Positions 36,601 through 64,000 of a stretch of DNA of 64,000 bases are shown here, in pieces. The stretch covers positions 1,137,285-1,201,284 of the forward strand of contig NW_019217805.1 in the NCBI RefSeq assembly GCF_002571385.2. Direction: 5' to 3'. The first letter of the stretch is position 1; the number at the start of each line of letters is the position of its first letter. Below the pieces are notes generated by a model. The model did no database searches and was not told the DNA's origin. It saw nothing but the letters and a program-made list of their open reading frames with translations. Source of the DNA: Stylophora pistillata. Lineage: Eukaryota. Both the position numbers and the translations under genes were made by a program.

Positions 36601-37979
36601 CCTTAACATTTTTGCTTGCATACAAGTTTTAAAGCCACGGGTACGATCGTTTTAACTGACCCGTTGTTGATCTATTGCAGGCTCATTTCACTTACTGCAC
36701 ATGCTCCTAGAGGATTACATCCTTTACACGGTTGAAAACCACAACAATGTGGATGAACTTTCGGTCCAATCCTCTGTTCGCGGTGCCAAGGAGACCAACG
36801 TTCTAGAAGGTTGGTGTTGGGTAACTAACTCGTTCAGCATAAACTGAGTTTATGCTGAACGAGTTAGTTACCCCCTTTAATCCAAGATTAGCCAAGTGAA
36901 GGTTTAGGTATCTTCAAAAAATGTTCCACAATTCTGTTTTCAGTCCGTCATATTTCAGTTCCCCAATTTTTTCGTTCATATCATCCCTTTATCCATTCTA
37001 GTCCCTTTCCATTTTCAATGCTTAAAGTGTAACGTAAAATATTGCCACAAACCTCATTTAAAACAGAGTTATAAACAATGTCAATGATGTTGTGAGTAAT
37101 TCATAGCTATGAAAAAGTTTAAAAGAGAGAACTAACAAATCGAATAACTTTTTTGTCGCAGATTCTACGAGCGAAAGCATGGAAATTGAGGTCGTTGGGC
37201 CGAGGTCCACTGTTGCGATGAAGACTGCTTGTCGAAGACATTCAAGTTCTTCTTCAATCGGTTCTCACAGAGGCTCCAGAGAATTGCCTCCTCAAAGAAG
37301 TCCAGTACCGCCCGCTATGATGCGTTCTTCGTATCACGACATGTCACCCCATCCCATGATGCCGATGACGCCTACCACACCAACAAACAACAACAACAAC
37401 AACAACAATATAGGGAAATACCCCATGATGGCGGAACAGGGCCACTTCCTGTATCCATCGCCTGAAGCCTATGGAGCAAGGTACGGTTATGGGCCTAGCC
37501 AGGGTAGCTTGATGCCCTCTATGAGTCATGGGAACAGCTTTGCCCCGACCGGCGGGAGTGACGGGGGAATTGCCATGGGAGACTTTGACATGTCGACTAG
37601 TTATGCGACAGATGGAACTGCATATGCCGCTGGTCGGTCTAAAACCGGCATGGCGGACTCCAACTACGCAGTTATGAATCCTTCAGCCAACATGGCGGCC
37701 TATGATTACAGAGGGATCTCTCCAATGGACCATATGAAGCATTATTCTCAGTACCCTCTCTCGGAACGAAGCTATCCTTCCAGTTACATGTTTCCAACGA
37801 CTGCAATAACGACAAACGCCATGTATCCTCTGTCGGGAGTCAGGGGCAGCACCAATGACAGGTTTTATCCGGATGTGCTCGAGGAGTTCGTGGACATGCA
37901 GGCTGCAATGCATCATGGGATACCACCTCGATCTGTGAGGTCGGATTACCCTTACACGCCCGCAATCCTGAGCAATTAG
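27106..37979 (+). CDS. RFX4: RFX-family winged-helix transcription factor, RFX4-like (DNA-binding domain, B/C and dimerisation regions, low-complexity C-terminus)
   Basis: Spliced [75 protein letters not shown]; [20 protein letters not shown] and GQSKY are RFX4-type rather than RFX6-type residues. Exons: 27106-27121 (start less certain), 29749-29821, 30410-30533, 30767-30828, 32592-32675, 33188-33356, 34047-34124, 34322-34485, 34915-35015, 35122-35180, 35614-35758, 35867-35961, 36438-36555, 36681-36809, 37162-37979 (TAG). All phases are consistent. Confidence 0.9.
37162..37979 (+). CDS. RFX4: RFX4-like terminal exon, Ser/Pro/Met/Tyr/Gly-rich with poly-Asn
   Basis: ORF 37179..37979, tcgcag| acceptor at 37161, phase 1 matches the preceding donor at 36809. 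Confidence 0.85.
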
Positions 37980-42138: not shown

Positions 42139-45100
42139 TCATCTTCTCTTCCAAACAAAATCAAAAGATCTGGAAGTTGGTCTTTGTCCGTCACCTCGGC
42201 GATCCCGAGACAGCTGTGCCATGGATGTTTCCAAGTCTGCCAGTCTGTCGGAAAATTCTTCTCTTTGTCGTTTAATTTCCTCCATCAAATCTGCGCGTTC
42301 CCTCTCTAGGGTCGTTATCCTTTCTTCCAATTTAGCAAAAACTTTGCTCTTCACTCTTGGATCCGTATCAGTTCCGTTTTCACTTGCTCTGTTTTTATCA
42401 TGTTTGTTCGAAAGCAATGCGCTGGTCCTTCGTTTGTCATTCTCCAGACGTTTCTTAGCAATATTCTCGATTTTCGTCTTTATTTCCGAGTACTCGTCGA
42501 GCACCTCCATCAGATCGTTTTTAGACAAGCAAAATAACTCCGAATAGCCGACAGAGCGGACCGAGGCTGTTCGACGATTTCCGGCAGCACTCATGCACAA
42601 AACGCTTATATCGCCGAAGTAGCTACCGGCCTCTAACACAGCGTACACTTTGGTTCCTGTCTCTGACACCACCTCAAGCTTGCCCCTATTCACGATGTAC
42701 ATTTCTCGGCCAACCTCACCTTTCCTACAGACGTAATCTCCTGGAGAAAAAGGAAGCAGTTCAGAATTCGGAATAAATAGGGGGATTGGAAGGATTTTTC
42801 AAAGTTTAGGGATCGCAGTTACAAATTTCTTTGGGTGTGTAGGCCAGCTGTTATTCATCCAGCGAGAAAGTCCGGTAAATGAAGTATCTAGCAGTGGAAA
42901 ATATTTCATGCCATATAGCTTTTTGCATACCCGAAGTGTAAGATTTTTGTGTTATTGCGGTGCAGTTCTGTTGAGAGAGGTCTGCTCTTAGAAGGAACAT
43001 CAGTTTTTCAGAGCGGAGGCGCGGCTCGAGGGGAATGGTGCTGACTCCTGCTCCTTTTTAGATGAATTTCTTTTAGTCAAAAACTTGCAAATCTTATACT
43101 TCAGGAGTGCGAAAACATGGAAAACAGACGAATTTACATGGTTTTACCCTGTTCCTTTTAGATGAATTCCTTTAAGTCAAAAACTCACAAATCTTACACT
43201 GCATGGGGACGTTTCTCGAAAGTCCCGGTAACTTAACGGGCCCGTAAAGCTGTTCTGTTTTCATTCAAGATGGGGATTTAAAAATTTTTGAGAATGATAC
43301 AATAAAACTATCAGCTAAAGAAACAAAAAGGACTGGTTTATGTGCCAGAAACCGATTTCCTATCCTTTAAATTTTGATTTTAAAACATGACTTCGGGCTC
43401 GTTAAGTTACCGGGACTTTCGAGAAACGGGCCCTAGGCCCCGGTTGTTGGAAGAGCGGATAACCCCATCCAACAGATAAATCCCTATCCAGCGGATAAGT
43501 GATAGAAAAACGTACTGCGCAATCCACAGGATAGAAATTTATCTTGCGAATGGCGTTATCCATCCTTCGAACAACCGGTGCCAGGAGTACAAAAACGTGC
43601 AAACCAGACGAATTCACATGGTTTTACCATTTGATAATAAAGTTTAATTTTTAAAGTTTAATTTTCATAATTATTTTCGCGGAAATCACTAACTAACAAC
43701 TCATCCTTGGTGCAACTACGCATGAGCCGAGGATCATTTGCAGCGAAACGCAATTAACATGTACAACGCATGAGCAGTTTATTGTGAGCTGGTGGGCTCT
43801 CGGCCAATGAAAAGGAAGTAAATTACCTGGAGAGAACAACTGAGGACGGAGACGCAAGACCAGCTCGCTAAGAAATCCTGCTTCACAATCTTGAAATATC
43901 TCGACCTTTCTCAGCGAATCGAGATGAACGTGGATCGCCAACTCTGCCCTCAATTTATCCGGCAATGACTGCAAGAGTTCCTCTTCGTCTGGATGCTTTT
44001 TGTTCATCCACAGATAGTCAAACCATTTAATAACTCGCTGCTGAAGATGTTGCGGAATCTTGTGAAAACGCATGTAGGACTTGATCCCGTCCATCTTATT
44101 TTGGAAGTCCACCTTAGCAGCATTCTGATTGGTTATGATNNNNNNNNNNNNNNNNNNNNNNNNNNNNNNNNNNNNNNNNNNNNNGGGCGAGTTTGATTTG
44201 AAATCATAAGTATGATTTCAGACCAAAATTGCACGACACGAGGTTCAATTACCACTTTATTACATCCATTTTGAAATCACCCAAATACTGGACTTGGTCA
44301 ATTCAAATATTTTACTGATACAGAACTGAGCCGGTTTTAAAATAAAAAGTGGAACCTGAAACGTTTTTACATCTTATTTTGTATGCAAAACAGAAAGACT
44401 TTGACGTCATGTGTCAAAAACTCAGTCAAGTGTACAATGATGCGATTCAGAGCAAAAAATGGTGCGATTTGGAAATAAATCGCACCAATCAGAGCCAATC
44501 AGATTACAGGGACCACCAGTGATTTCAAAATGGAAACTCGATTTTTAAAAGATGTAATAAAAAAGCAAAATGTCGTTAATGTTGACGTCATCTATGCTTC
44601 TGTCCTGCAATAGATCATACATTATAACCAATCAAAATGGGTGTATAATTTAGCGTAAGGGATGATAACACTTGTCATCGCCAACTTTTTCGGTCACAAC
44701 AATTCAGCGCGCCTTACGTGACGCCCCTCTTACCGCTGTTCTTCCTGTTGTATCAACGGGCCGCGCGAAGTGAGGTACAGAATATATTGTTTATATAACC
44801 AAGATTTTAATACATACCAAAGCCGCTGAGGAAAATAACTTGCTTCGAAAAACGTAGTCCACAAAATTAGCTTTCAAACGAGAGTTTTTTCAAGAAATTT
44901 GGACAAATGACAGTCAAGATATCGCCATTCGAAAACAGGGGATTTTGCAGTTTTATCGTGGACTTCGGTTTGTTAATTTTCTGCTGTTTGGCGGCCAAAA
45001 ATTGAAGGGGCTGAAAAATCGCTCTGAGCTTCAAAATTTAAATTTTGAACCTGGAGAGGGTCTACTACAGAGGTCCTGTCCGGCAAATGGAGCACCTAGC

Positions 45101-48100
45101 TCTGGAAATGATTTATGCCATGCTGATGCTTCGGATTCACGCGTTTTCGCCACCTGAATTATAAGGGTTGTATGGAATATACCTTCGTTTTCGAGAGATA
45201 GTAAAAGGGAGGGTTTACCACACTCGTTTTATTGTTGTTTATTTTTTAACAGATTGCTTTTACTTGTAGTATCAATATCCCCGTCCGGGAAATTGAAAAA
45301 ATTTTTCATGATAGCGAATATTTACAATTTTTACGAGCCTTCCATACAATTCTCTTTAAAATCGGCAGCGATGTTTACAGACATTTTGTTATCAAACCGC
45401 CTGCCTACCGCACGCTCGTGACCGGAATAGTTGGCGATGACATCTCTTTGTTAAAAAGAGTTAACAGAGCTTCAACTTAGGTCTTATGAATGATACCCAA
45501 CTTACCTATTAAATAGTCAATTGTGACGATAATAAATTCCAAATTAGAATCCGGTGGTGGAACCTCACCAATCGTAGTTAACGTTAAAGTTGACCAATAA
45601 AAGGAATAGATGTATTTCCTCGTGAGAGACCTGTGCATTTCAGTCATATTAGCGTTCTCCTTTAATCCGGGGTATACCCAGGAGTCCTTTCCAAATCCAA
45701 TTTTACGCGACACTATAAAATATATACAAGCGTTCCAGTGGATTATGACCAGAATAAATTGCATCAGGGACGCAAGTCTGAACAGGTTTGGGTAGCTTGT
45801 CCTGCTCTCCGTACGGTCCAGAAAAAGCCAGAACCGGTGATACTTGATAAGACGATTCATGCGAATAGCTGGTTCGTGTGCGATGAAAATGTACGCAATG
45901 TCCAACGGGATTACAGATGCGGCGTCCATACAAAACTTCGATGTTCGAAGGTAGTGGCGCCTCATTTTTTTTATGTCTTTTTGCATGATACCATCTTCCA
46001 TGTAGCCTGTTCTGGAGCTGACGAAGATGTCAACAACGTACACGATGTCGCAGAGATAGTCGATTACTATCCAAATATAATGGTGTTTCTTGTGGAGTTC
46101 GGGGAAAGATGACCTTAATATAAGAACCCATGAATTGTACACAACTGCTAAGGACACTATTAAGAGCCAGTAATAGAGTCTGTCACCTGCAACGCAGAAA
46201 ATGAAGAGGAAACGAAATCAGTAATTTCATTCAATTTTTTTTTAATTCCAAACGTCGGATGCTGCTTTACCTCATTTCGACTGAGGAAATAAAAACAATA
46301 CAAAATTGCTCATTTTTTGAAGCACTCTTATTATGTGAAAGGAAGGACTTGGGCGGAATTACCCTAATGATTGGGAATAGTTTTAATCGAAAATGGAAAA
46401 TGAAAATGGAATGATTATCAAATTACAAGAGTACTGAAAAAAAGCACGAAAGCCCATGAGAAACCACAGGGCTTTTAAGCGATGGGCTCCCCCTTAATTT
46501 CGTGCCCAGACCTTCCACAGCCAAGCAGTTGTTTAAGTCCGTACATTTCAGCGACACGGTAGGATCTGAGTACGAGCAAATATCCCAAGCACAGTTTAAT
46601 TAAAGATTCAAAAGCAACGAGTCGATAGTAGAATAGAAAATGAGTAGAACTAAAACGTTATTTTAAATCACTTTGATTATCTTTGGATGTCTTCATTTGA
46701 AGCTTCTCTGTAGCACCCCAGGGAAAATAATTGTTGAGTGCCCCCCCCCCCCCCCTCCTCAAACTCCTACCCTTTTCCTGAGCATTTTATTTTGCGGAAG
46801 TTAAAGCTCACTCAGCATGGAGCAGATGGCAGATGAATGATCCATAATAATATTTTTATCTCCGTCTAAACAGTGGTTTAAAGCAAAAGTTTTTCTTCAT
46901 TTATCTACCATTACCTGGCTCAAGGAAGGCAGCAAATGGTCCTACGATCATAACATGATTTTGCAAAACATTTCAAGGAAGCAGCAAAAGAGGTGATATT
47001 CCAGATGTAGTATATGTTGTTCGCTCTTTGGATAAACACTCCTTCCACATAACTTAATATAGCCATCAGGCGAATAACCATTTTTTATACCTTCTGCATT
47101 AAAGGACATTCGAATGAAGTAATTCACTGATTACGCTCGAAAACAAACTTAAAATGTATTTTTTTTTACAAAAACAAAATCGCAACCGAAATGAAATTAC
47201 AAAACTGTTTTGTGAATGATAAACAGTAGTATTTTGGGATTATCTAACGCATGATTAAAATTCAATTTAAAAGTTGGTAGCCACGGCTATATTGTGTCTG
47301 GCCAAACAGAAATTTGCAAAGCAAATTTGAAAATCCATCCGGTTCTTTTGGACATTTTTTGTTAGATCTTCTATTTGATATAGCGGCCGTTTAGCTATCA
47401 GACCACACTAACCACTACATCTTACGTCTCTGTTACTCGATTTAACCAACACTGATCAACAACATTCAAGAAACATATCTCTTATCAGTTCGATTAGTAG
47501 TTTTATATAAATTTCAACAACCTAAGGTGATACTTTCAGCGTTTGTGAGGAATTAAAATATGATTTATTATAATTATTTTCTGTATTTTTTTTGGCACAT
47601 TTAACATAGAAATAAGTATCCAGGACTCCAGAAAAATATACGAACAGAGAGTGCCGGGGCCGATGAAAAGTGATCTGAACGGCTACGAAAGATCGTATTG
47701 AGGTAATCTTTAAATATGAGCCGAACATATGGTATACTTAGGCTCTATTTTGTATTTATTTTTTATTGACTAAGGAACGATTTTCAATTTGATGTTGTTG
47801 TTTGAATATAAAGATAACTAGATATCGTCTCAGGACCTAAGTCAGTTAGCAACTCTTCGGGATTTTAACCCGATGAGAACGATTTTTTCTATTTTTACTC
47901 AGTGAATCATCAAATCAATGAAATAAAATTTTTTCCTGAGCCTAAAAATTAAGTTACTTCTTTAAAAAAATAAATAAATAGAAAAAAAAAATTAACGAAA
48001 AAAGTTGAAATCAACATGAGTGATTTTACGAGGTAACTGTTATAACTCTGTTTACCTCCAGGGTCGAAGAATCTTAACCAGCCAACTTTTGTTTCTCCAT

Positions 48101-48983
48101 CGCCGAGTAACCCAACTGAAGGGATCCTTACTCGGTTAAGGAACGCTTTTTCGGCCTCACTATATCTTCGACCTCCTTTATACCAGTACCGGAGTAGTCG
48201 CTTGTGGCGAATGTCTGCGTCCTCTTCCTCGCTGAAAGTGTCGGTGTTTGCCGAAAAGCGAACCTTTGATGTCCTGTTTGCCGTTCCTTCGTTCATTTTT
48301 CTATCGTTTTGCGTGTTGGGTGGATCTGAAAAAGGAGGAAGAGAAAGCGGTTATTTACAGGTACGTATCTGAGATAGGCTTCAGTGAAGCTGCGCTCATC
48401 GGCATCTTGTAGATATCTGCTTTTAAAACATCATTTACTTGAAGAGGAAAGATTCTGCTGCAATAATTTTGACGCGAACTTGCTTCTAGTGGGTTCGTTT
48501 ACCGCCGGTCAAATTCATGAATATTATTGAAACTGGTTGTCAAATGCCATTTAAAAGTCATGCTCTGAGAGCATCAACGGGAAACCCTCTGGTCTTTAGA
48601 CATGTTAGACAACTGACAGCGAGAAGGCTTACAAAACTGACGAGTGAAGAGGCGGAACTTGCGCGCAGTGAAAACTTAACTTTGATCTGCCGACTATTCA
48701 GGCCAAGTTTCTTTTTGTTTAAGTGTGACAGTAATAAAAGAGGAATTTGGCATTTTTTCTTGAGTCTTAAACAAAGGTGCACTTAAGCGAGGATAATTAC
48801 GCACGAGTATAACAAGCTGATTTCAATAGACCTCCTGTCAAAACCGAAAAGTTCTCCTACCACGAAATACTTTTCTGTTTAATCCAAACAAAATGAACTG
48901 GGTTTTTATGAAGACAAAGCAAAAGGTTAGTAAAGACACAAGCGAGCAAGTAAGTTTATTGATTCACCTCTACGGTTTGTCAT
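42139..48983 (-). CDS. Cyclic nucleotide-gated cation channel, alpha-type (CNGA-like) subunit
   Basis: Exons 48983-48968 (putative ATG), 48325-48056, 46186-45506 (S1-S5, pore [16 protein letters not shown], start of S6), ~44139-43827 (5' end lost in N gap; C-linker [21 protein letters not shown]), 42740-42139 ([24 protein letters not shown] plus C-terminal coiled coil/leucine zipper). Confidence 0.92.
43205..43582. mobile_element. Two adjacent MITEs inside a ~100-bp tandem duplication in a CNG intron
   Basis: 43205-43432 TIR cgtttctcgaaagtcccggtaacttaacg / cgttaagttaccgggactttcgagaaacg; 43436-43582 TIR ccggttgttggaag / cttcgaacaaccgg; host repeat ..cagacgaatt(t/c)acatggttttacc at ~43125 and ~43605. 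Confidence 0.7.
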
Positions 48984-51900
48984 AATTTTCTTTATGCAAT
49001 TCTAATCCAACCGGATAAAATTCTGTATCGTGAAATTTGTATACTTTTCGATAGTAACCTACCTAGAGGAGAGGCTACTGACAGGAAAGATATATTAATT
49101 CAACTTGTAGTGGCATTGGCATTTGCATCAAATTCACAAAGCTAGAAAGGGAATCCGCCTTTGCTATAATAAACAAACACACCCTACACTAAACAATGTA
49201 CATGTTCGAGCAAAGTAGGCTGCCAAAGTAAAATATATCTCGCTTGTCATAAGCAAGATCTTGTTCCCGAGGTCAGATCGTTCTCTGTCTTTTTCCAACT
49301 ATTTCTAAAAATAAGTCTACTCCAATTTTCCGTTGACTTCCTCGATCTATCTCTCTGCGTGCTTTTAGCGACGCAGATCTCATCCATTCACAGCTAGTGT
49401 TAAAAGTAGACTTGATATTTGAGACGAAAGTAAATGAATGGCTTAGTCAGCGAATTGAGTGAAGGCATCGAACATAATCTGCGCATGTACATGTATCCTG
49501 CAGCTGTTACTACAGCTGATAGCGTCAAACTGCGCAAGTCTGGCCATAGCGGCTAAAAGGTGATTTTCATCCATGATCTTAAGTCATTACAAAATTTATG
49601 GTTTTAACTTTTGCAGAACCCGTTTTAAGATAGTGCATAAGTAATCTCGGTTCGCTTACCACGGCTGTCAAGTTCAAGGTTAATCCTGTTTATCGCATTT
49701 AAAATTATTACTCGCTAATAGTGAGAAAAAAGTAGATTATGGATTTTCGTTTTGTTATCGGAGGACATCTTTTGTCTCCATATCGAGGTCAGGTTGAGAA
49801 GTCCTCTCACGAATGACCGGGCATTTTTGGCGAGGAACATTTTTCGAATATTTACAAAAGCACTCGTCGTTCCTCCCTGTTTTTTTTTTGTTTTGTTGCT
49901 TTTTACTCTGAGATCTTTTACATCGCTACCTCTTTTTTTTTAAATTGCCCGTCAGTGTTTACTAACGAAGGCAATAATAGTAAAATGCGAAATAATTAAG
50001 TGAATTATTCATGCGTTTGGTACGTTTTTCTATACCACGAAGAATCGAATAAGTCGTTAACGAACTGACAGCGTAGTTCATAAATTACACTTAGATTACA
50101 ATCAAATATCTCGACCAAGTGAGAAATGTTCAGCATATTTTCGAAAAGAAAGGGGGTGAATCTTAAAAAGATTCCCTAAACTAAGGTCGAGTAATTTTCC
50201 TGTAGAAAAAAATATAACCTCTCGAAAGCATGATAAAATTTTGACGCAAAAATAGCATTCTGACTTTTATCGTGTAAACTGTGAAAAACAACATACCAAA
50301 GTATAGCCCGTTGTTCTATTTGCATTTTCGCTGCGGTTAAGGTAGTCACATCTTGGAGTTTGTAAGTCAAAATAACTTTGAGTAAATATGTTTCTTTTAC
50401 TTTCGTCTTTTCCTTTCCAACGAAAGAATGTGTCCATACAATTTAAAGGAAAGCAATGCTAATGTTCTCGCGACCATGAGGACAAACCAGGCACTGGGCG
50501 CCGCGAAGAAGAGGTCTAACGTCACGTTCGTAAAATCTCTGTGGATAGCTGTTTTATCAAACGAAGAAAATCGATCTCACAGATTGAGTGGCAGCGCGCG
50601 CAGCTGCTAGCAGGCATTGCTGGCGTTTGCTCATTCTATTAAAGTTTACTTATTCTGCCTCTGCATGAAAAATTCATAAGTTTGAGAGATTGTTGTGATA
50701 AAAAATCCATCATTTAACCATGGAAAGCTAAAAGAATAGTTTGGTTCTAACCAGATTGAATAGCCATGAATAAGCAATTCTCAAGCGAAGTAGGCATTTT
50801 TAAACGTTTTTCGACGACTTTATGGTTGTGTGCGCTCCAGAGAGTGAATCTACGATATCTTTTCGAATTTTTATTTGACAGAGAACTTCGCATTGATTTA
50901 ATCGATTTCTCGCAAGAGGTAGAAATTAACATATTCAAACATATACGCTAAGCAGAGGAGGTTCGGCTAATAACAGCAATAAATTTCCTTTACAGCAAAC
51001 TGAATTAAATATCACCAAGTCTATATTGAGCAGTTTTGGCCTCAATCCGGAGAGAAATGCTTTCGACGCGGGAAATCAAATTGTCACAAAAAAATTCTCA
51101 ATCACTTCCAGGAAAACTGATTTGCTATAGATGACAAAAAAGGCCTTAAATTGAGGTGAGAAAAGTACTTAATGGCTTCCAAATTTCATTGTTTTCTCTT
51201 TATAGCAGGATAAGAGGCTGATGTCAAAAAAAAACGCATAGGGAACTTGTAATATACCTGGAAAACCAATTAGTAGCGCATCCTTACGATATAGATTGCT
51301 TTTGCAGATTTTAATCCCCCGTATTATGAAATTTTTGGATTAGTTTCAGTTGGAAAAGAGAGAGCAATTTTCAAGATTGCACTCGATCGAAATAACCACC
51401 GAGAAGGCGCCCCGGGCGACAGTCAAATACAAAAGTAATTTTTTCAGGTGTTTCAAAATTGAGCATAAACTAAAACCGATACAAAACGCTTTCTCTGTCT
51501 TGGACAATGAACTGATACAAAAAAAAACTCCCAACCCAAAAACAGCGGAAATTAAAATTTTATCAGATTCAATTTCGACCTCAGAGGGAGTTTTGTAGAA
51601 AACACTGCTTTTAGCGTAGATAAGATGCGATAAAAACCATCGGCGTACCTTTTGCTTTCATGACCCGGAGCGATATATTCGATGTCAAAACTTCGCGGGA
51701 GGAAGTTCCAGTGTCCTCAGTCAATGTATAATTTTGTCAACATGAACTAGTGAAACACTCTCCAGGGTTAATCCGTGTAAATATTCGGAACCTTCTGCTT
51801 AGCAGCCGCATCTAATTTACTTGATGAGTTGCGGCTTTAGTTTACATTCAGCAAGTGGTGATTCTTCTCGTGTTTGACACCCAAGCGCCAAGTTTTACCG

Positions 51901-53929
51901 CGTGCCCTTATTTCACATTCTGGAGGAATGACAACTTTTCCTGTGTAATAGGCTGAGACAAGCGTTTGTATTTGTCCTAAAGCCAAAACAAATTCATATT
52001 ACAAAACAATATCCGGTAGATGGAAGAATTTACTTGCTGTAAAACCTTTTATTTGCATTGTGGAATAGAAACATTTGTCTTTAATTGGGATTCATCACCC
52101 GTGAGAGCGCTTTTAATAAGGCAAGAGTTACGAACTTGTCAGGTGAGATCATAGACAAAAAGATACGTCACCTCTATGGAAACTTGACACAAGGAAAACC
52201 TATGAAGTGAATCTACACAATAGGTATCTGCCGCGAAACTTTTCAATTGTCTCAATAGGTTAAAAGCTTTTGAACATCGTTGTAATTGTTCGAAGAGGAT
52301 TTTTACCGATAAAGCATTTGGCTCGGACGAAATAATTTTTTTCTCGGTTGCTACATGAAAGACTGCCTCTAATCTCGGTAAAGTATACTTTAAAAAATAT
52401 TTCATACTTACAAAAAAATGGAGAAATAATTTTATAAAGATTTTTCACTTAAGAGGAAATCGTATCGGGAAACTTCTATCAGATTGCTCTAACACTTTAC
52501 ACGGTCAATATTGTTTGAAACGTCGTTTGTGTCACATGAAAATTTTCAGTCATATAACATTACATGTTGGATAGGGACAATCACCGAAAAACTGGTGATT
52601 ACCATGGATTATCGAAGTTACATTGGATTCGTAACAGAGTCAGTCGACCGGAAAAAAAGAAGCGTTTTCAAAAAGCCGTAGATTACCTTTTAAAAAATGT
52701 ATCAAACTGATTTCATTTCTTAATGTATTTTTTTTCGGTAAGACCAATATTACCTTCTTCGTCAAATAGACCACCCCGGGTACAGTTTGTAAAAGATTTA
52801 TTCATGTCAGGTAAGATTTTTTTTCGTTTGGTATGTAAATTGCGTTTGTTGAGCATGGCGTTTAATACGGATATGGGGCTGAAGATTCTTAAATATCCAA
52901 GAGGATGATTATTCTGTTTTAAAAATTTCAGGTTTATATTCTATCATATAATTCTCTTTTTGTATGTTTTAAGTTAATGGCCCTGCGGCGTAAAATCTAT
53001 TCGTAAACATCTGCTTTATGATGCATTTTGATTAGTTTATAAATTATGTATATTTCTATTTGAATAAATGATGCACATTTTCCTAAAAAAATCTCCAACA
53101 TTTGTCACACAAGTGCTTCCCTTTGCATGAATTCTCTTGCAAAAACGCACAAGTTTGAAGCCCACAAAAATTCGACTCATTTTCACGATTTCATCATCGC
53201 ATAGCGACGCCTTTCGCTTGTTGTTGAAAAGTGTTCCATCGCTAAAATGACTGATCAAGGCGTGATGCAGAATATTAACAAAAACATCCTTTTCTGATTT
53301 AAGGTAATGCAAAATGAATTTATAATAGCCATGTGTAATTCTGCATACACACTCAAGCAATAAAAAAACGTCAGTGTCGTGCAAATTTGCGAATCATGCC
53401 AGTTTTTAAATAGCAGTAGACACAAGGGCGCGTTATGTACCTGTTTAGTATTGTTTCAACTCAGTTGTTTACCGAGCATTTAGCTTTAAATTCGAATCAC
53501 CATGTTAGAATCATGCTCCTTAAAAGATTTCAGAACTAAACACTGTAGGAAATATTTTCTGCAGCAGCTCTCTCTGCGTTAATTACTAAGAAAAAAGGGA
53601 GATGCCACTTTTTTCCATCTTAATTTTTTGCGCCAGCCTTACAATTGTGTCACGCGTGGAGCTTTAGGGAGTTATGGAAAATTTGCGTGTCCGATCTTTT
53701 TAGGGAAAGAATTTAACAAAGGATGTATTAGAATGACAAATTTAACAAATTTAAGTCTCGCTTTGAAATAGAAAAATTAAAAGGTCAATAGTGTAGATAA
53801 ACAAATAAACAAGATCAGCATCATGACCATCATGGAAGGCGCCATCAGAATTGAAAGAACATCTTTTTTTTTCTCTTGAATCTTTTTTTTTGGCACTCCT
53901 TCGTGTGTTTGCTTGCTTGTTTAGGGATC

Positions 53930-57978: not shown

Positions 57979-60133
57979 GTTAATTATCCTGAATCAAATC
58001 GCCCGATCTCAGCTAAGGCAATTAAAATGGAGGCGATGTTGCGAATGTTTTCAGGATCGCACTAGATTGTTTTATCCACTCTAAGCCGCCCCGTCCAAGA
58101 AGTACTACTAAAACACAAAGAAAAAAACTGGCACACCAGTCTAAGTAAAGCCTTCCAAGTGATGTTTGGATCGCTGTTCCTGCAATCTAAATGCTGGCGA
58201 AAGACTAATATTAGACGCGTACACGCAGTGTTCGGCCGCCGCCATGTGATTAGCCTGTATGATTTGTTTGCGATTGACTGCGCTAAATTCAAGTAAACAC
58301 AGCCTGCTTAACTGGAAGGTGAAACGGACAACTCTCGTGACGTCCTTCTGAAAGGAGATAAGGAGGATTCCTTCTAAAAGCCCTTCAGTCTTCGGTAAAA
58401 TGTTTGCCCTGCACCGAAGCTTAACTAAAAGAGGCCCGAAATCACATGTTCGGATGTTTAAGTATCTGCCATTTTAAGTCCCGGTAATAAATGTCATTTT
58501 GGTTGCTCGAGGAGGAGTCATAGGTGGTATATCTATGGTACATCCCGAGTAACTGAAATGATTGATGCAGGTCTAAAAGTCTGCTTTCATTTTCTTTTTT
58601 TTTTTGGCCTTAAGAGTCAATCTTGAAATAGATTTTCAAAAAATAATTATAAAGAAGATGTCTGTTTTTCAATCACCATTGTAAAACTTTTAAATGATTT
58701 ATAAGCCGCTAATTTCTTTCTCAACTCAGTTGTTAAAAGCAAATAGAAAAACATCATTGTAGAACATTCACGTCATTTTGCCTCTAAGGCCGTAAAACCA
58801 TAATTTGTTTCTGTCCTAAAGTTCAAATCAAAATTTTTCCCATGCAGCAGTTGAAAACTTCTTTTCGTGCCATGAAGTGACCTAGCCGTGATAGTCGATG
58901 GTACCATTTATAGAATTGCACCTTAATGTAAGCTATGGTGATATTCAAAGGCAGCCTTTTTTCAACCATTTTCTCTTTTTATCACCCATTTTGTGGTCGA
59001 GTTCACCTCACCTAAAAATTTATCAGGAAACACTTTTCCTCGCCGAAAAACAAGAAAAGGTAAGTTTATATACAAGTACATGAAGCATGCATGGTCGGAA
59101 AAAATCGTTAATTGGATACGAAATGACAACCGTAACTCGCAACTTACTACTGAGAAAAAACAACATAAGTCGGAAAATCCGAATTCATTTTCTTCTGAAG
59201 TTCTTAAGGGTAAAATTAACGTTTACCTCGATTCACTTGAAAAAACTCATATCCAAAGCAGCGAATTCATGCAGCTCTGGCGTTATCCGGTATTTGAACC
59301 TTTTCTTTGCCGCCTTACCGATTCGTCAAAGGTGTGACTCGATTTTTCATCAGTGTTTTGCCTTTGGCAGTTAGAATCGTACGCAGATCATTCATCATGT
59401 CTAAACTAATCGGAGCCAAATAAAAGCCACTTGATATCTTCATCACGCGTTCGTAAGGTCGTAGATATGATTTGGTGGTTTCAACCATGATATATCTAAA
59501 TGTTATTACTGCAAGATATGGAACTCGACCTTGGGTCCACTTTTTCTTTACATGATAGGTTCTTTAATAGGAAGAAATGGCAGCTTTGCACAATAATTAA
59601 CGCCAAAAACTTGTTCCATGGTAGTTCTACGGTCGTTTGCAGCCAAGTAACACTAAATTTTATCGCCAAATTTACAAGTTGCTTTCACAGAGGCGGCTTA
59701 GAAAGCCTGAAAACACCTTAAAATTAAATTATTTAGCATTCAATTTGGTGACAGAACATATTTCACGCCTGCACTAAATTTTTCCACGAACTGAAGCCAT
59801 TCCGCAATGAAACAAGCGATCAGATTATCGGTTGTCTAACCCTCTTTTTGTCACGAAACCCAACGAGTTTGCGAAAGTGGTTTGTTTCTAGATGATAAAA
59901 AACCATCCTGTTTCAGAGTTGAGATTAAATCTCCTTGGCCGAGCCATGGCGCCTTAAACGACTCCAACCAGAGCGAGGCTCCAAATCAAGTGTGCCCTTA
60001 CGAGAAATAAACAAATACTAACTTTGTAAACAATAGACAGTGTAAAAAGTATATAAAAAAGTATATAAAAAAAGTATATAAAATAATAAAAGAAAAAACG
60101 AAAACGATAGGAATAAATCCCTCATGCGGCCGA

Positions 60134-60254
60134 AACAAAAAAAGACATGAGCGAGGAGGAGCTTTTTCAACAACTTAATGACAACATTCGCGCAGAAATT
60201 GCCATCCACGTCAACTTGGACACACTGAAGAAAGTGAAGATGTTTGAGCATTGC
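60134..60254 (+). pseudogene. Displaced CNG C-linker coding fragment upstream of the second CNG gene
   Basis: Translates KKDMSEEELFQQLNDNIRAEIAIHVNLDTLKKVKMFEHC, homologous to [39 protein letters not shown] of the CNG gene at 43827-44139; no splice acceptor, and homology stops abruptly. Confidence 0.8.
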
Positions 60255-60695: not shown

Positions 60696-62586
60696 ATGCA
60701 AAGACCGTCGAATCTCACTCCAGACGAAAGTCCCCTCACTGGGGTGAATCACGCATCTGGTCAAGAGGAGGCTGCTGGCCCACAAATCCCCAGGGTGGTT
60801 ATTGAGTCCACTGGACAGACGCGATTTGCGAGCTCCGTGCTTAGAGTTTTATCTATGCAACGTTTCTACAAGAAAACCGGCAGAAGATCACGCGATTCAT
60901 GGCTCGAGCGCTACACTGGAACATATCAAGAAGACAGAGACTGGCGCCGACCGCTCATGCGCAGATCTGCTTCAAACTCACCCCAAGTTCAGAGCCCTAC
61001 ATCGGAAGGGACGGGAAGTTCTCGAGACGCATCAGATGCCCGGCTTGACCAGGGAAGTTGCAATTGCACGCCAGTATTTGACCCTTCAGGGGACTTGTAC
61101 TTCTTTTGGCTGATCGTAGTTGTTCTCGGAATCTTGTACAATTATTGGACGATTATTTTCCGCGTGGCTTTCTTCGTGCGTGAGCAGAAGTATGTAATAC
61201 CATTCATGGCGATCGACTATAGCTGCGACTTCATATTTCTCCTGGATATCATTGTGCAATTTCGTACGGGGTACTTTCTCGACGGCAAAATAGTCACGGA
61301 TACCAAACAACTAGCCAAACATTACGTGAAATCTCGGGGTTTCTTTCTGGATTGCGTTTCCATCCTACCAATCGACCTTCTCTTTTTGGTGCTGGGCCCA
61401 AGGCCTGCTCTGCGATTTGGTCGGCTCCTTAAAGCGCACAGACTTTTCCTCTTTTGCGACCGCGTTGAGATTTACAGCGGTCGCCCCAAGCTGTTTAACC
61501 TTTTGAAGCAGATTCATTACCTGTTTCTGATAATTCACTGGGTTGCTTGCTTCTACTTTCTTCTTTCATATATGGAGGGATTTGGAGCTGACAAATGGCT
61601 CCATCCCATGCTCCAGGGTCAGTGGGAAGAGGTGAGTAAAAACATATGCCTACTTGAATAGACTATTTCCGAGATGCCCTAGTCGTCTGTTTCAAAGCGA
61701 AGGTGAGCGCGAAGCCTTGGATACGACGACTTATTTTACATTCTTTGGAAATTTAGACTCTGTTACAACTGAAGGCTTTTCGACTGGTCTCATTCCGAAA
61801 ATCGGGGTTTTTCGGAATTCGGAAATGGTTCATCGAAACACACAGCTTAAGCAATATTTTCGGGGTAATAGTGCAGACGACTATGCCTAATTTCGAAATA
61901 TTATTCCGTCCATGTATCAAAAACATTCATGGCATTTTCTCGTGAAAATTCACGTCACAAAATTTTGGTAATTTTACGTTGCAGTTTCTCAGAGAATTGG
62001 GAGAAAATGCAAAAAAAAAATAAAACTTATCGGCTTTCGTGAACAGTTGTGTTCAACTTTCTAACTGAAGATATCAGATAACATAAACCAATCAACATCA
62101 TTCATCCAACCCATTTGTTGGGCCTATTCCTAGTAATCACAAAGGTAAATGCGCAGAGAAAAAATAGAGGGAGGTCTGAGGTCCGGTTACGCATGGAACG
62201 CGTAGGGGACGCGCCACTTTTGCGTTCCGCTTAAGGTCCTCTTTGTTTACAAGCTTAACACCTGTGACTCGGTCATTTAGATATTCGACGATTTGACGAG
62301 CCATTTATATCTATTTTAAGGAGTTTACATTTGTTACAAGACGATATTGAGAGTGTTCTTAACCTCTTTTTAGGTCGGTCCTCAATATCTCTACAGCCTG
62401 TTTCGTTCACTGGTATCCATGACAACAGTGGGTACAGGTAAACAGGTCTCACCCCAGACCACCATGAGCCTAATGTTCTGTATCTTCACGTACTTATGTG
62501 GGGTTCTGATATTTGCTACCATTGTCGGCAACGCAGCAGATATGATTGTTGATCTCAGGAGACATAGAGAGAAATACCATAGAAAG
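60696..62586 (+). CDS. Second CNG-channel-like subunit (S1-S6 exons), divergent pore; gene continues beyond right edge
   Basis: Exon 60674(ATG 60696)-61631: VFDPSGDLYFFWL..DYSCDFIFLLDIIVQFRTGY..S4 LRFGRLLKAHR..IHWVACFYF. Exon 62374-62586: YLYSLFRSLVSMTTVGTGKQVSP..GVLIFATIVGN. In-frame TGA just upstream of the ATG supports the start. Confidence 0.88.
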
Positions 62587-62599
62587 GTCTGTTGTTGTT

Positions 62600-63400: not shown

Positions 63401-64000
63401 ATTAATCCAGGGATATAATCGAAGATGACATCCCTGCGTATGGCAGTTTATTTTTCAACTTAGATGCATTTAGTAATCAACTAAACAGGTGTGTCGTTTA
63501 TTTTCGACCCGCAATTCTGATATACAGCTTTAGCATTTCAGCCCTTAGGCACATACCGCAAAGTCATTTAGCAAACTGCTGAGCACATAGCTTGCTAGCA
63601 GACTACTTATTACACCATTAACTTCGTATAATTTCATATCAAATATGACTATATAACTATGACGTCACTAACTTCAACACCTGGAAGTCGATCTGCTGCA
63701 AATGCAGTAGGTCACGTGATCTTCTATTAGTTGGTAACTGCTGCTATTAGTACTTTCTATCGGCCGCATGAGGGATTTATTCCTATCGTTTTCGTTTTTT
63801 CTTTTATTATTTTATATACTTTTTTTATATACTTTTTTATATACTTTTTACACTGTCTATTGTTTACAAAGTTAGTATTTGTTTATTTCTCGTAAGGGCA
63901 CACTTGATTTGGAGCCTCGCTCTGGTTGGAGTCGTTTAAGGCGCCATGGCTCGGCCAAGGAGATTTAATCTCAACTCTGAAACAGGATGGTTTTTTANTT

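Follow-up and report, generated by a model that had tools for sequence, protein, structure and literature searches.

What kind of channel subunit does a coral build when the selectivity filter of a cyclic-nucleotide-gated (CNG) channel is replaced by a sequence that belongs to neither CNG nor K+ channels? In a survey of CNBD channels, TIGE is given as the filter of metazoan CNGs throughout the clade, and larger departures from it are put down to individual channels (PMC7576140). Against that view, a whole subfamily common to a sea anemone and stony corals keeps a different pore under strong selection. We analysed a member of this subfamily, CNG4, in a 64,000-nucleotide stretch of the 398-Mb Stylophora pistillata genome (hereafter the window; G000:C22:1137285-1201284), for which the closest named relatives are stony corals. 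Features of the window are collected in Table 1.

Table 1. Features of the CNG4/CNG1 locus, in window coordinates
Feature	Position	Strand	Remarks
CNG1 (canonical CNG gene next to CNG4; named CNG1 by Baker et al., likely CNGF)	42139..51661	-	TTIGE filter, Asp at 604, C-terminal CLZ-like coiled coil
CNG1 coding exons	about 51649-51661, 48055-48325, 45498-46190, 43825-44136, 42139-42741	-	
Conserved non-coding block	51500..52146		Holds CNG1 first exon and a stretch matching the CNG4 transcript 5' end in relatives
Inverted repeat, left arm	59896..60139		244 nt, 99%; X5 depth about 11,600
Partial copy of CNG4 C-linker exon	60138..60254	+	Upstream of exon 1; its part 60170-60254 has the same sequence as the in-place exon past the window end (G000:C22:1203245-1203329)
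CNG4 coding exon 1	60696..61631	+	ATG, N-terminus, S1-S5, turret; 312 codons
CNG4 coding exon 2 (pore exon)	62374..62586	+	Arg in place of pore-helix Trp; TTVG-TG-K filter lacking Glu; S6, its hinge Gly and cavity-gate Phe/Val intact; C-linker start
Inverted repeat, right arm	63754..63997		In intron 2, beside N at 63998

CNG4 is an intact and expressed gene

The plus-strand frame of the pore exon reads VGPQYLYSLFRSLVSMTTVGTGKQVSPQTTMSLMFC...REKYHRK. It lies between canonical splice sites, AG at 62372-62373 (acceptor) and GT at 62587-62588 (donor); the joint between exons 1 and 2 is GT..AG in runs X8, X15 and X23, and both borders of the pore exon are splice junctions in RNA contigs of X8, X15 and X18. 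A preliminary description of the window had drawn attention to the unusual pore TTVGTGK beside the canonical pore of CNG1, and the same letters were recovered from independent DNA and RNA runs. In DNA run X5 (2024, a separate study), the whole exon lies inside one contig with no variant letters listed within it. The RNA contig of X15 differs from the window by a single silent base in this exon, and a polyA RNA contig of X18 matches it exactly and joins it to the C-linker start that is missing from the assembly. The 3222-nt contig of X8, a run taken as RNA by guess and whose contig is spliced, leads from exon 1 through the pore exon, a 125-nt stretch that the assembly contains only in part, and two more exons to the last exon. 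It stays in frame through all coding exons and encodes 977 aa, as counted from the joints, with no stops downstream of the pore. Stranded raw reads of X23 over exons 1-2 place first mates on the minus strand, as for plus-strand RNA, at a thin depth of about 1-5 on the exons and with 2 reads across intron 1; contigs of X17 and X19 are unspliced over the locus and uninformative on splicing. Positions 62374-62586 are the pore/S6 exon of an intact, spliced, expressed coral CNG gene of about 977 aa. [quoted passage not shown] By its 6TM, C-linker and CNBD sequence and fold, CNG4 is a member of the metazoan CNG family.

The assembly is faulty beside the pore exon and past the window: there is an N at 63998, a duplication of 1977 bp, and a C-linker exon short of about 95 nt, with the remaining CNG4 exons about 2.0-5.2 kb beyond the window end. 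These faults would suit a sequencing error, a mis-assembly or a decaying pseudogene. That explanation is ruled out for practical purposes by the agreement of independent DNA and RNA runs, by one RNA contig that spans all coding exons in frame, by orthologues with the same pore, and by dN/dS far below 1 (see below).

The partial copy of the C-linker exon upstream of exon 1 has an X5 depth of 287, compared with 94-215 on nearby single-copy stretches. A separate X5 contig continues from 60225 into exon 1, and both continuations of the C-linker piece are present in X5. The copy is likely a real partial exon duplicate that sits beside a high-copy repeat and was collapsed by the assembler. The 244-nt inverted repeat that flanks CNG4 exons 1-2 is marked by its very high depth as a dispersed high-copy repeat. 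Past the window end (L003:4999-5188) lies a palindromic, MITE-like high-copy element of ~190 nt with X5 depth above 10^5, and further copies are found near 10.0-10.8 kb and 13.6 kb of the window. At about 4150-4720, the same translated stretch is read on both strands (4156, plus; 4715, minus), which indicates another inverted duplication.

Identity and phylogeny

The gene is not new to print. Baker et al. (2015) list it as Nvec_CNG4 and Ofav_CNG4, and its neighbour as CNG1, as outgroups only and with function unexplored (PMC4640657, S1 Table). Nvec_CNG4 (XP_001627476) is the Nematostella orthologue, and Ofav_CNG4 carries the same coral pore. Lagman et al. (2022) describe CNGE as a cnidarian-only, CNGA-like clade, report CNGD, CNGE and CNGF to overlap in Nematostella metacells, and find CNGE to be the most highly expressed CNG gene in larvae and the top one in larval neurons (PMC9803222). 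Anthozoans are reported to have five CNG subtypes and no CNGB, and Lagman et al. postulate a CNGA-like subtype in its place; the words 'pore' and 'selectivity' have 0 occurrences in their main text (PMC9803222). According to a bioRxiv preprint, CNGE is specific to anthozoans, which possess five out of the six types of subunit (10.1101/2023.09.14.557824), and we located five CNG genes in the S. pistillata genome. The subfamily has thus been named already; no discussion of its pore or its pairing turned up in the literature searched, which included PMC7576140 and PMC12749960 and took in few subscription papers.

Relationships were inferred from a maximum likelihood tree (LG+G4) of 40 rows, holding no CNGB or HCN row, after 16 redundant or long rows out of 56 had been left out. 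The CNG4 clade of Nematostella and corals stands alone (100/100), with no bilaterian in it among the 40 rows. CNG5 groups with CNGA (100/99); CNG2 and CNG3 join clades that hold spider and annelid sequences (99/95 and 100/100); and CNG1 joins an arthropod clade (80/84; 246/300 bootstrap trees). Other sister groups of CNG4 were not rejected by the AU test (p 0.154, 0.065 and 0.061), the value of 0.065 being that for CNG4 and CNG1 as sisters. Because the other four paralogues join clades with non-cnidarian members (CNG1 only at 80/84), CNG4 is most likely CNGE, a name reached by elimination in the tree; by the same elimination, CNG1 is likely CNGF. CNGB orthology is not supported for CNG4, which scores 431 bits to CNGA3 compared with 263-294 to CNGB and has neither TIGG nor the S6 Arg gate, the tree being one without a CNGB row.

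CNG5 (L007:5149-6330, G000:C358) has an odd pore as well (YWSSRMLTTGETENPP), with a pore-helix Arg and GQF in S6. By eye, this Arg lies two residues before the CNGB3 R403 position, and the same is seen in Baker's Nvec/Ofav_CNG5. Opposite the CNG5 3' end runs a 745-aa TPR-repeat open frame (G000:C358:26000-35999; L007, minus strand).

A pore signature kept across the family

A protein search with the pore exon gave 9 proteins among 39 candidates. In a search with the S1-CNBD core (2448 matches of 7985 scored), four family clusters from Oculina, Acropora, Montipora and Nematostella reached at least 667 bits and the next match 475; a six-row profile search gave ten family matches at 119-156 bits, followed by one at 71. 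Word-limited protein searches named no orthologue from Exaiptasia, Actinia, octocorals or medusozoans, which is weak evidence of absence. A metagenome scan of 79 loci separated 11 at 93-97% from others at no more than 45%, and these 11 together with the window comprise 7 distinct pore-exon sequences. Across their 21 pairs, pore-exon dN/dS (Nei-Gojobori) is 0-0.107; for the window against the other six it is 0.012-0.044, at dS 0.93-1.54. The CNG4 pore is kept under strong purifying selection in stony corals, and decay or error, which a canonical TIGE in orthologues would have suggested, finds no foothold here.

Arg replaces the pore-helix Trp, and the filter Glu is missing, in the orthologues of Oculina, Desmophyllum, Acropora, Montipora and Nematostella alike. 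Among the 40 stored family proteins, which include redundant isoforms, none has an acidic residue after TTVG, and all 34 whose pore helix is present have the Arg that the preliminary description had pointed out. The Trp is kept in 54/54 other CNG subunits aligned, a comparison set hand-picked from several hundred. Three further traits had been read from the coral sequence and hold for part of the family. Lys after GTG, at the normally acidic site, occurs in 34/40 proteins, among them those of all the named stony corals, and is absent in Nematostella and two other clusters. The GxG spacing is found in 38 of 40. The loop exceeds the canonical CNG length by 2 residues in corals (TTVGTGK..), by 3 in P0009 (TTVGTGVHIGAP) and by 5 in Nematostella (TTVGAGVIGTIATP, containing TTVGAGVIGT), and in P0304 (TTVGTITIP) it has 0 extra residues. 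On these alignments, the stable family-wide signature is the change of Trp to Arg with loss of the outer-pore acids, and the Lys and the K+-channel-like spacing are clade-level details.

A return to K+ selectivity can be set aside on sequence. The pore-exon profile scores 59 bits to CNGA, 32 to EAG and 25-28 to HCN. In the usual alignment of K+ and CNG channels, the two added coral residues would fall at the YG position of K+ channels. Compared with TVG(Y/F)G(D/N), however, CNG4 has Thr/Ala at the Tyr and Lys/Val at the Asp; with neither the filter Tyr/Phe nor the Asp in place, nothing suggests K+ selectivity.

The charge of the pore is reversed. From the pore helix to upper S6, four coral CNG4 rows carry +2 or +3 with zero acids, and four CNG1 rows carry 3-4 acids with zero bases. 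A shift in outer-pore net charge from -3/-4 to +2/+3 per subunit could mean that CNG4-rich channels have given up cation preference and pass anions, all the more as the filter Glu, which is essential for Ca2+ permeation and block, is described as repelling Cl- (PMC10761061), and as a basic cluster follows S6. Against this, CNG4 retains the backbone-carbonyl TTVG filter, Nematostella lacks the Lys, and an Asp has been gained at the inner end of S6. P-loop channels are not known to include an anion-selective one. Anion permeation strikes us as very improbable; an anion-permeable cyclic-nucleotide-gated pore would, as far as is known, be the first for the P-loop superfamily.

Changes outside the filter

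Of the columns conserved in the 54 comparison subunits, the CNG4 family has changed 5/13 in the pore helix and loop, 3/10 in S5, 3/10 in S6, 12/39 in the C-linker and 4/56 in the CNBD. Three of the residues concerned, the pore-helix Trp, an S5 Arg and an upper-S6 Glu, are lost in 6/6 family rows and kept in 54/54 other CNGs; the S5 Arg has become Asn in all six, and the S6 Glu Ser, Thr or Cys. By counting from H310, the S5 Arg maps to R297 of bovine CNGA1. Replacement of R297 by Ala or Cys leads to inactivation, with R297C poorly expressed, and W353 of CNGA1 has been modelled as packing the pore helix on S5 (PMC5758780). The earlier statement that the rest of S1-S6 is intact and CNG-like does not wholly hold, the S5 Arg and the S6 Glu being missing as well.

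The hinge Gly and the cavity-gate Phe/Val, as defined in PMC10761061, are present in S6 (GVLIFATIVGN), with Ser at the hinge in one cluster. At the column of the CNGB S6 Arg gate, CNG4 has Ala or Gly. The phosphate-binding residues of the CNBD (FGE..R-T-A) are present as FGEIS and RRTAS in corals and LRTAS in Nematostella; CNG4 keeps its nucleotide-binding residues and is predicted to be gated by cyclic nucleotides. At position 604 of the C-helix, CNG4 has Gln, compared with Asp in CNG1. Gln at 604 is associated with a weaker cGMP preference and is also found in a functional alpha subunit, for which reason it was dropped as a beta mark (PMC2233835). In an AlphaFold2 monomer of an orthologue (L016 product, 60-row alignment), the CNG fold is predicted with a mean pLDDT of 80.8. 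Residues 192-208 form an intact pore helix, the loop of 12 residues has pLDDT values of about 75-84, and the model's best fold matches are CNGA chains.

These retained elements raise the prospect that CNG4 functions alone, as a homotetramer. This would be a NaK-like, non-selective channel for monovalent ions, gated by cyclic nucleotides, which Ca2+ would permeate or block little if at all. TTVG, the S6 hinge, the cavity gate and the phosphate-binding residues are intact, the monomer model retains pore helix and CNG fold, and high CNGE expression in larval neurons (PMC9803222) fits such a role. NaK, with TVGDG, is non-selective and conducts as a homotetramer, and neutralising the acid in a CNG mimic abolishes Ca2+ binding (PMC3082925). 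However, a homotetramer would have Arg in all four copies of a Trp site that is normally buried, along with four Lys and no outer-pore acid, an arrangement expected to repel cations; loop length differs by 5 residues among orthologues, unlike other conducting CNG filters; and the S5 coupling Arg is lost. We consider a homomeric channel rather unlikely.

The C-terminal tail also sets CNG4 apart. After the CNBD, it extends for about 400-500 aa in CNG4 versus about 110 in CNG1. Pfam CLZ (PF16526) was found in neither. A CLZ profile built from 31 CNGA tails was non-discriminating (all below 8 bits), hence a crude heptad score was used instead: it is 0.43-0.70 for CNG1 tails (n=4), 0.63 for CLZ-bearing CNGA (n=3) and 0.23-0.33 for CNG4 (n=4). 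CNG4 does not fall within CNGA proper, given the lack of PF16526 and the low heptad score, CNG5 being the paralogue that groups with CNGA. Nor does it have the makeup of a principal, alpha-type CNG, as it is without the filter acid, the pore-helix Trp and the S5 Arg; the S6 hinge and gate are retained.

Joint loss of the filter Glu and of the W353 and R297 equivalents, a freely variable loop length and the long tail could all point to a subunit that does not conduct, either silencing or lowering the current of the tetramers it enters or serving as a nucleotide-sensing scaffold through its tail. The low dN/dS of the pore exon, with TTVG and the gate included, is a better fit to a pore-lining, conducting role, and an inhibitory or non-conducting partner seems unlikely to us.

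Head-to-head pairing with CNG1

CNG1 reads TTIGEVPPP in its filter at about 45600 on the minus strand, and its ATG at 51661 is spliced in frame to 48325, by inspection. The head-to-head orientation of CNG4 and CNG1 was read in the S. pistillata window. The pair has consecutive locus tags in Oculina and Desmophyllum, and accessions 2-9 numbers apart on equally long contigs in Acropora palmata, A. cervicornis, Montipora foliosa and Nematostella; in M. capricornis both genes lie on equally long contigs with non-adjacent accession numbers. The pairing is conserved in six named genomes, from Nematostella to corals.

In the 12 kb between the genes, only two stretches align to the coral locus L010. 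One, the block at 51500-52146, has 73% identity over 662 nt. In relatives, transcript contig L016 links the two genes' 5' UTRs, and L019 matches 51986-52146 with its 5' end; other CNG4 5' exons also occur there (L015, L017), and not every transcript starts at the shared region. With this transcript support from relatives, the block is likely a shared bidirectional promoter. The other stretch, at 50544-51272 in the first intron of CNG1 (67% over 750 nt), may be a regulatory element or an alternative exon.

Two further observations concern CNG1 and its surroundings. Its CNBD, at about 42680-42690 on the minus strand, reads FGDIS here and FGEIS in orthologues, which may reflect an allele, a species change or an error. 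Downstream, an unrelated gene is suggested by a 288-aa Met/Pro/Ser/Tyr-rich open frame on the plus strand (37113-37979).

A predicted beta-like modulatory subunit

The reading that we favour, and hold to be somewhat more probable than its negation, is that CNG4 is a beta-like modulatory subunit, evolved separately from CNGB, which is predicted to co-assemble with CNG1 and to weaken Ca2+/Mg2+ block. The idea of a modulatory role in heteromers draws indirect support from the conserved pairing, the likely shared promoter, the missing CLZ-like zipper and the published co-expression. Divergent transcription from one conserved promoter region would lead the same cells to make both subunits. The CNG1 coiled coil would favour trimers, and the zipper-less CNG4 would fill the fourth place, as CNGB does. 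CNG4 would bind cyclic nucleotide and supply a normal S6 gate, coupling weakly when alone because its S5 Arg is lost. Its loop would exchange one Glu of the ring for a neutral or basic segment, with less divalent binding and Ca2+ permeation and more monovalent current. CNGB offers a precedent: it has lost the Glu and carries an extra basic residue in the pore helix (R403), and in this way weakens Ca2+ block (PMC10761061). With CNG4, a beta-type subunit would then have arisen independently within the CNGA-like part of the family, in a lineage reported without CNGB.

A 3:1 pore/C-linker model of three CNG1 chains (P0159, 232-428) and one CNG4 chain (L016 product, 140-331) scored 0.63, with the best control at 0.00, contact agreement of at least 86% and partner pLDDT of at least 67; the pore-helix Arg of CNG4 (202 in the L016 product) is not among the listed interface residues. 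The mark used for complexes was reached by 51/78 solved versus 2/108 mismatched pairs, and in eukaryotes by 71/105 versus 2/126, with our own alignments left unused. Because solved CNG tetramers exist, the score shows likeness, namely that the odd pore fits a CNG tetramer, and not that CNG4 pairs with CNG1.

The complex tool cannot distinguish family members, and the principal partner could be CNG2 (likely CNGD) instead, with the pairing to CNG1 a mere old tandem arrangement. CNGD is also co-expressed (PMC9803222), and CNG4 and CNG1 as sisters were not rejected. This assignment is nonetheless quite improbable, in that the pair has been kept from Nematostella to corals with a conserved overlapping 5' region.

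Several findings count against a beta-like subunit. The S6 gate, hinge, TTVG and CNBD of CNG4 are fully alpha-like; a top-expressed CNG gene in larvae (PMC9803222) fits poorly with a minor role; CNG4 is not a CNGB, and its Gln at 604 is no beta mark; a TVGxG homotetramer conducts in NaK; other 5' exons are in use; the naming as CNGE and CNGF is by elimination; and the AU test, at p 0.06-0.15, did not reject other sister groups.

Lagman et al. gave no structural candidate for the CNGB role. CNG4 would supply one, with a named partner and residue-level predictions, and bears on the repeated origin of modulatory subunits and on the way Ca2+ entry is adjusted in the cyclic-nucleotide signalling of corals, for example in light sensing.

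Comparison with known systems

CNG4 is the same gene as Baker's CNG4 and most likely CNGE, and neither its pore nor its head-to-head pairing was found in the accessible parts of the two papers. The K+-type relatives CNGK, EAG, SthK and HCN share the TVG start, and coral CNG4 has its two extra residues at their YG place; it differs in having neither the Tyr/Phe nor the following Asp/Asn, and it is a single repeat, not fourfold. NaK likewise has TVGxG without the aromatic residue of K+ channels, but its x is Asp, compared with Thr or Ala in CNG4, and it is a two-helix bacterial channel without a CNBD. CNGA4, a known modulatory subunit (PMC10761061), resembles CNG4 in its CNGA derivation and TVG filter start, whereas its filter retains an acid (TVGD) and its S6 hinge residue is Ala; CNG4 has no acid and a hinge Gly (Ser in one cluster).

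With CNGB1 and CNGB3, CNG4 shares a filter without Glu, a basic pore-helix residue, the lack of CLZ and a retained CNBD. It differs from them in being CNGA-like in sequence, in a longer loop with TTVG(T/A)G (TTVGTI in P0304) compared with TIGG, and in lacking the S6 Arg gate. Its Arg stands at the W358 position, three residues N-terminal of CNGB3 R403, and its long extension is C-terminal.
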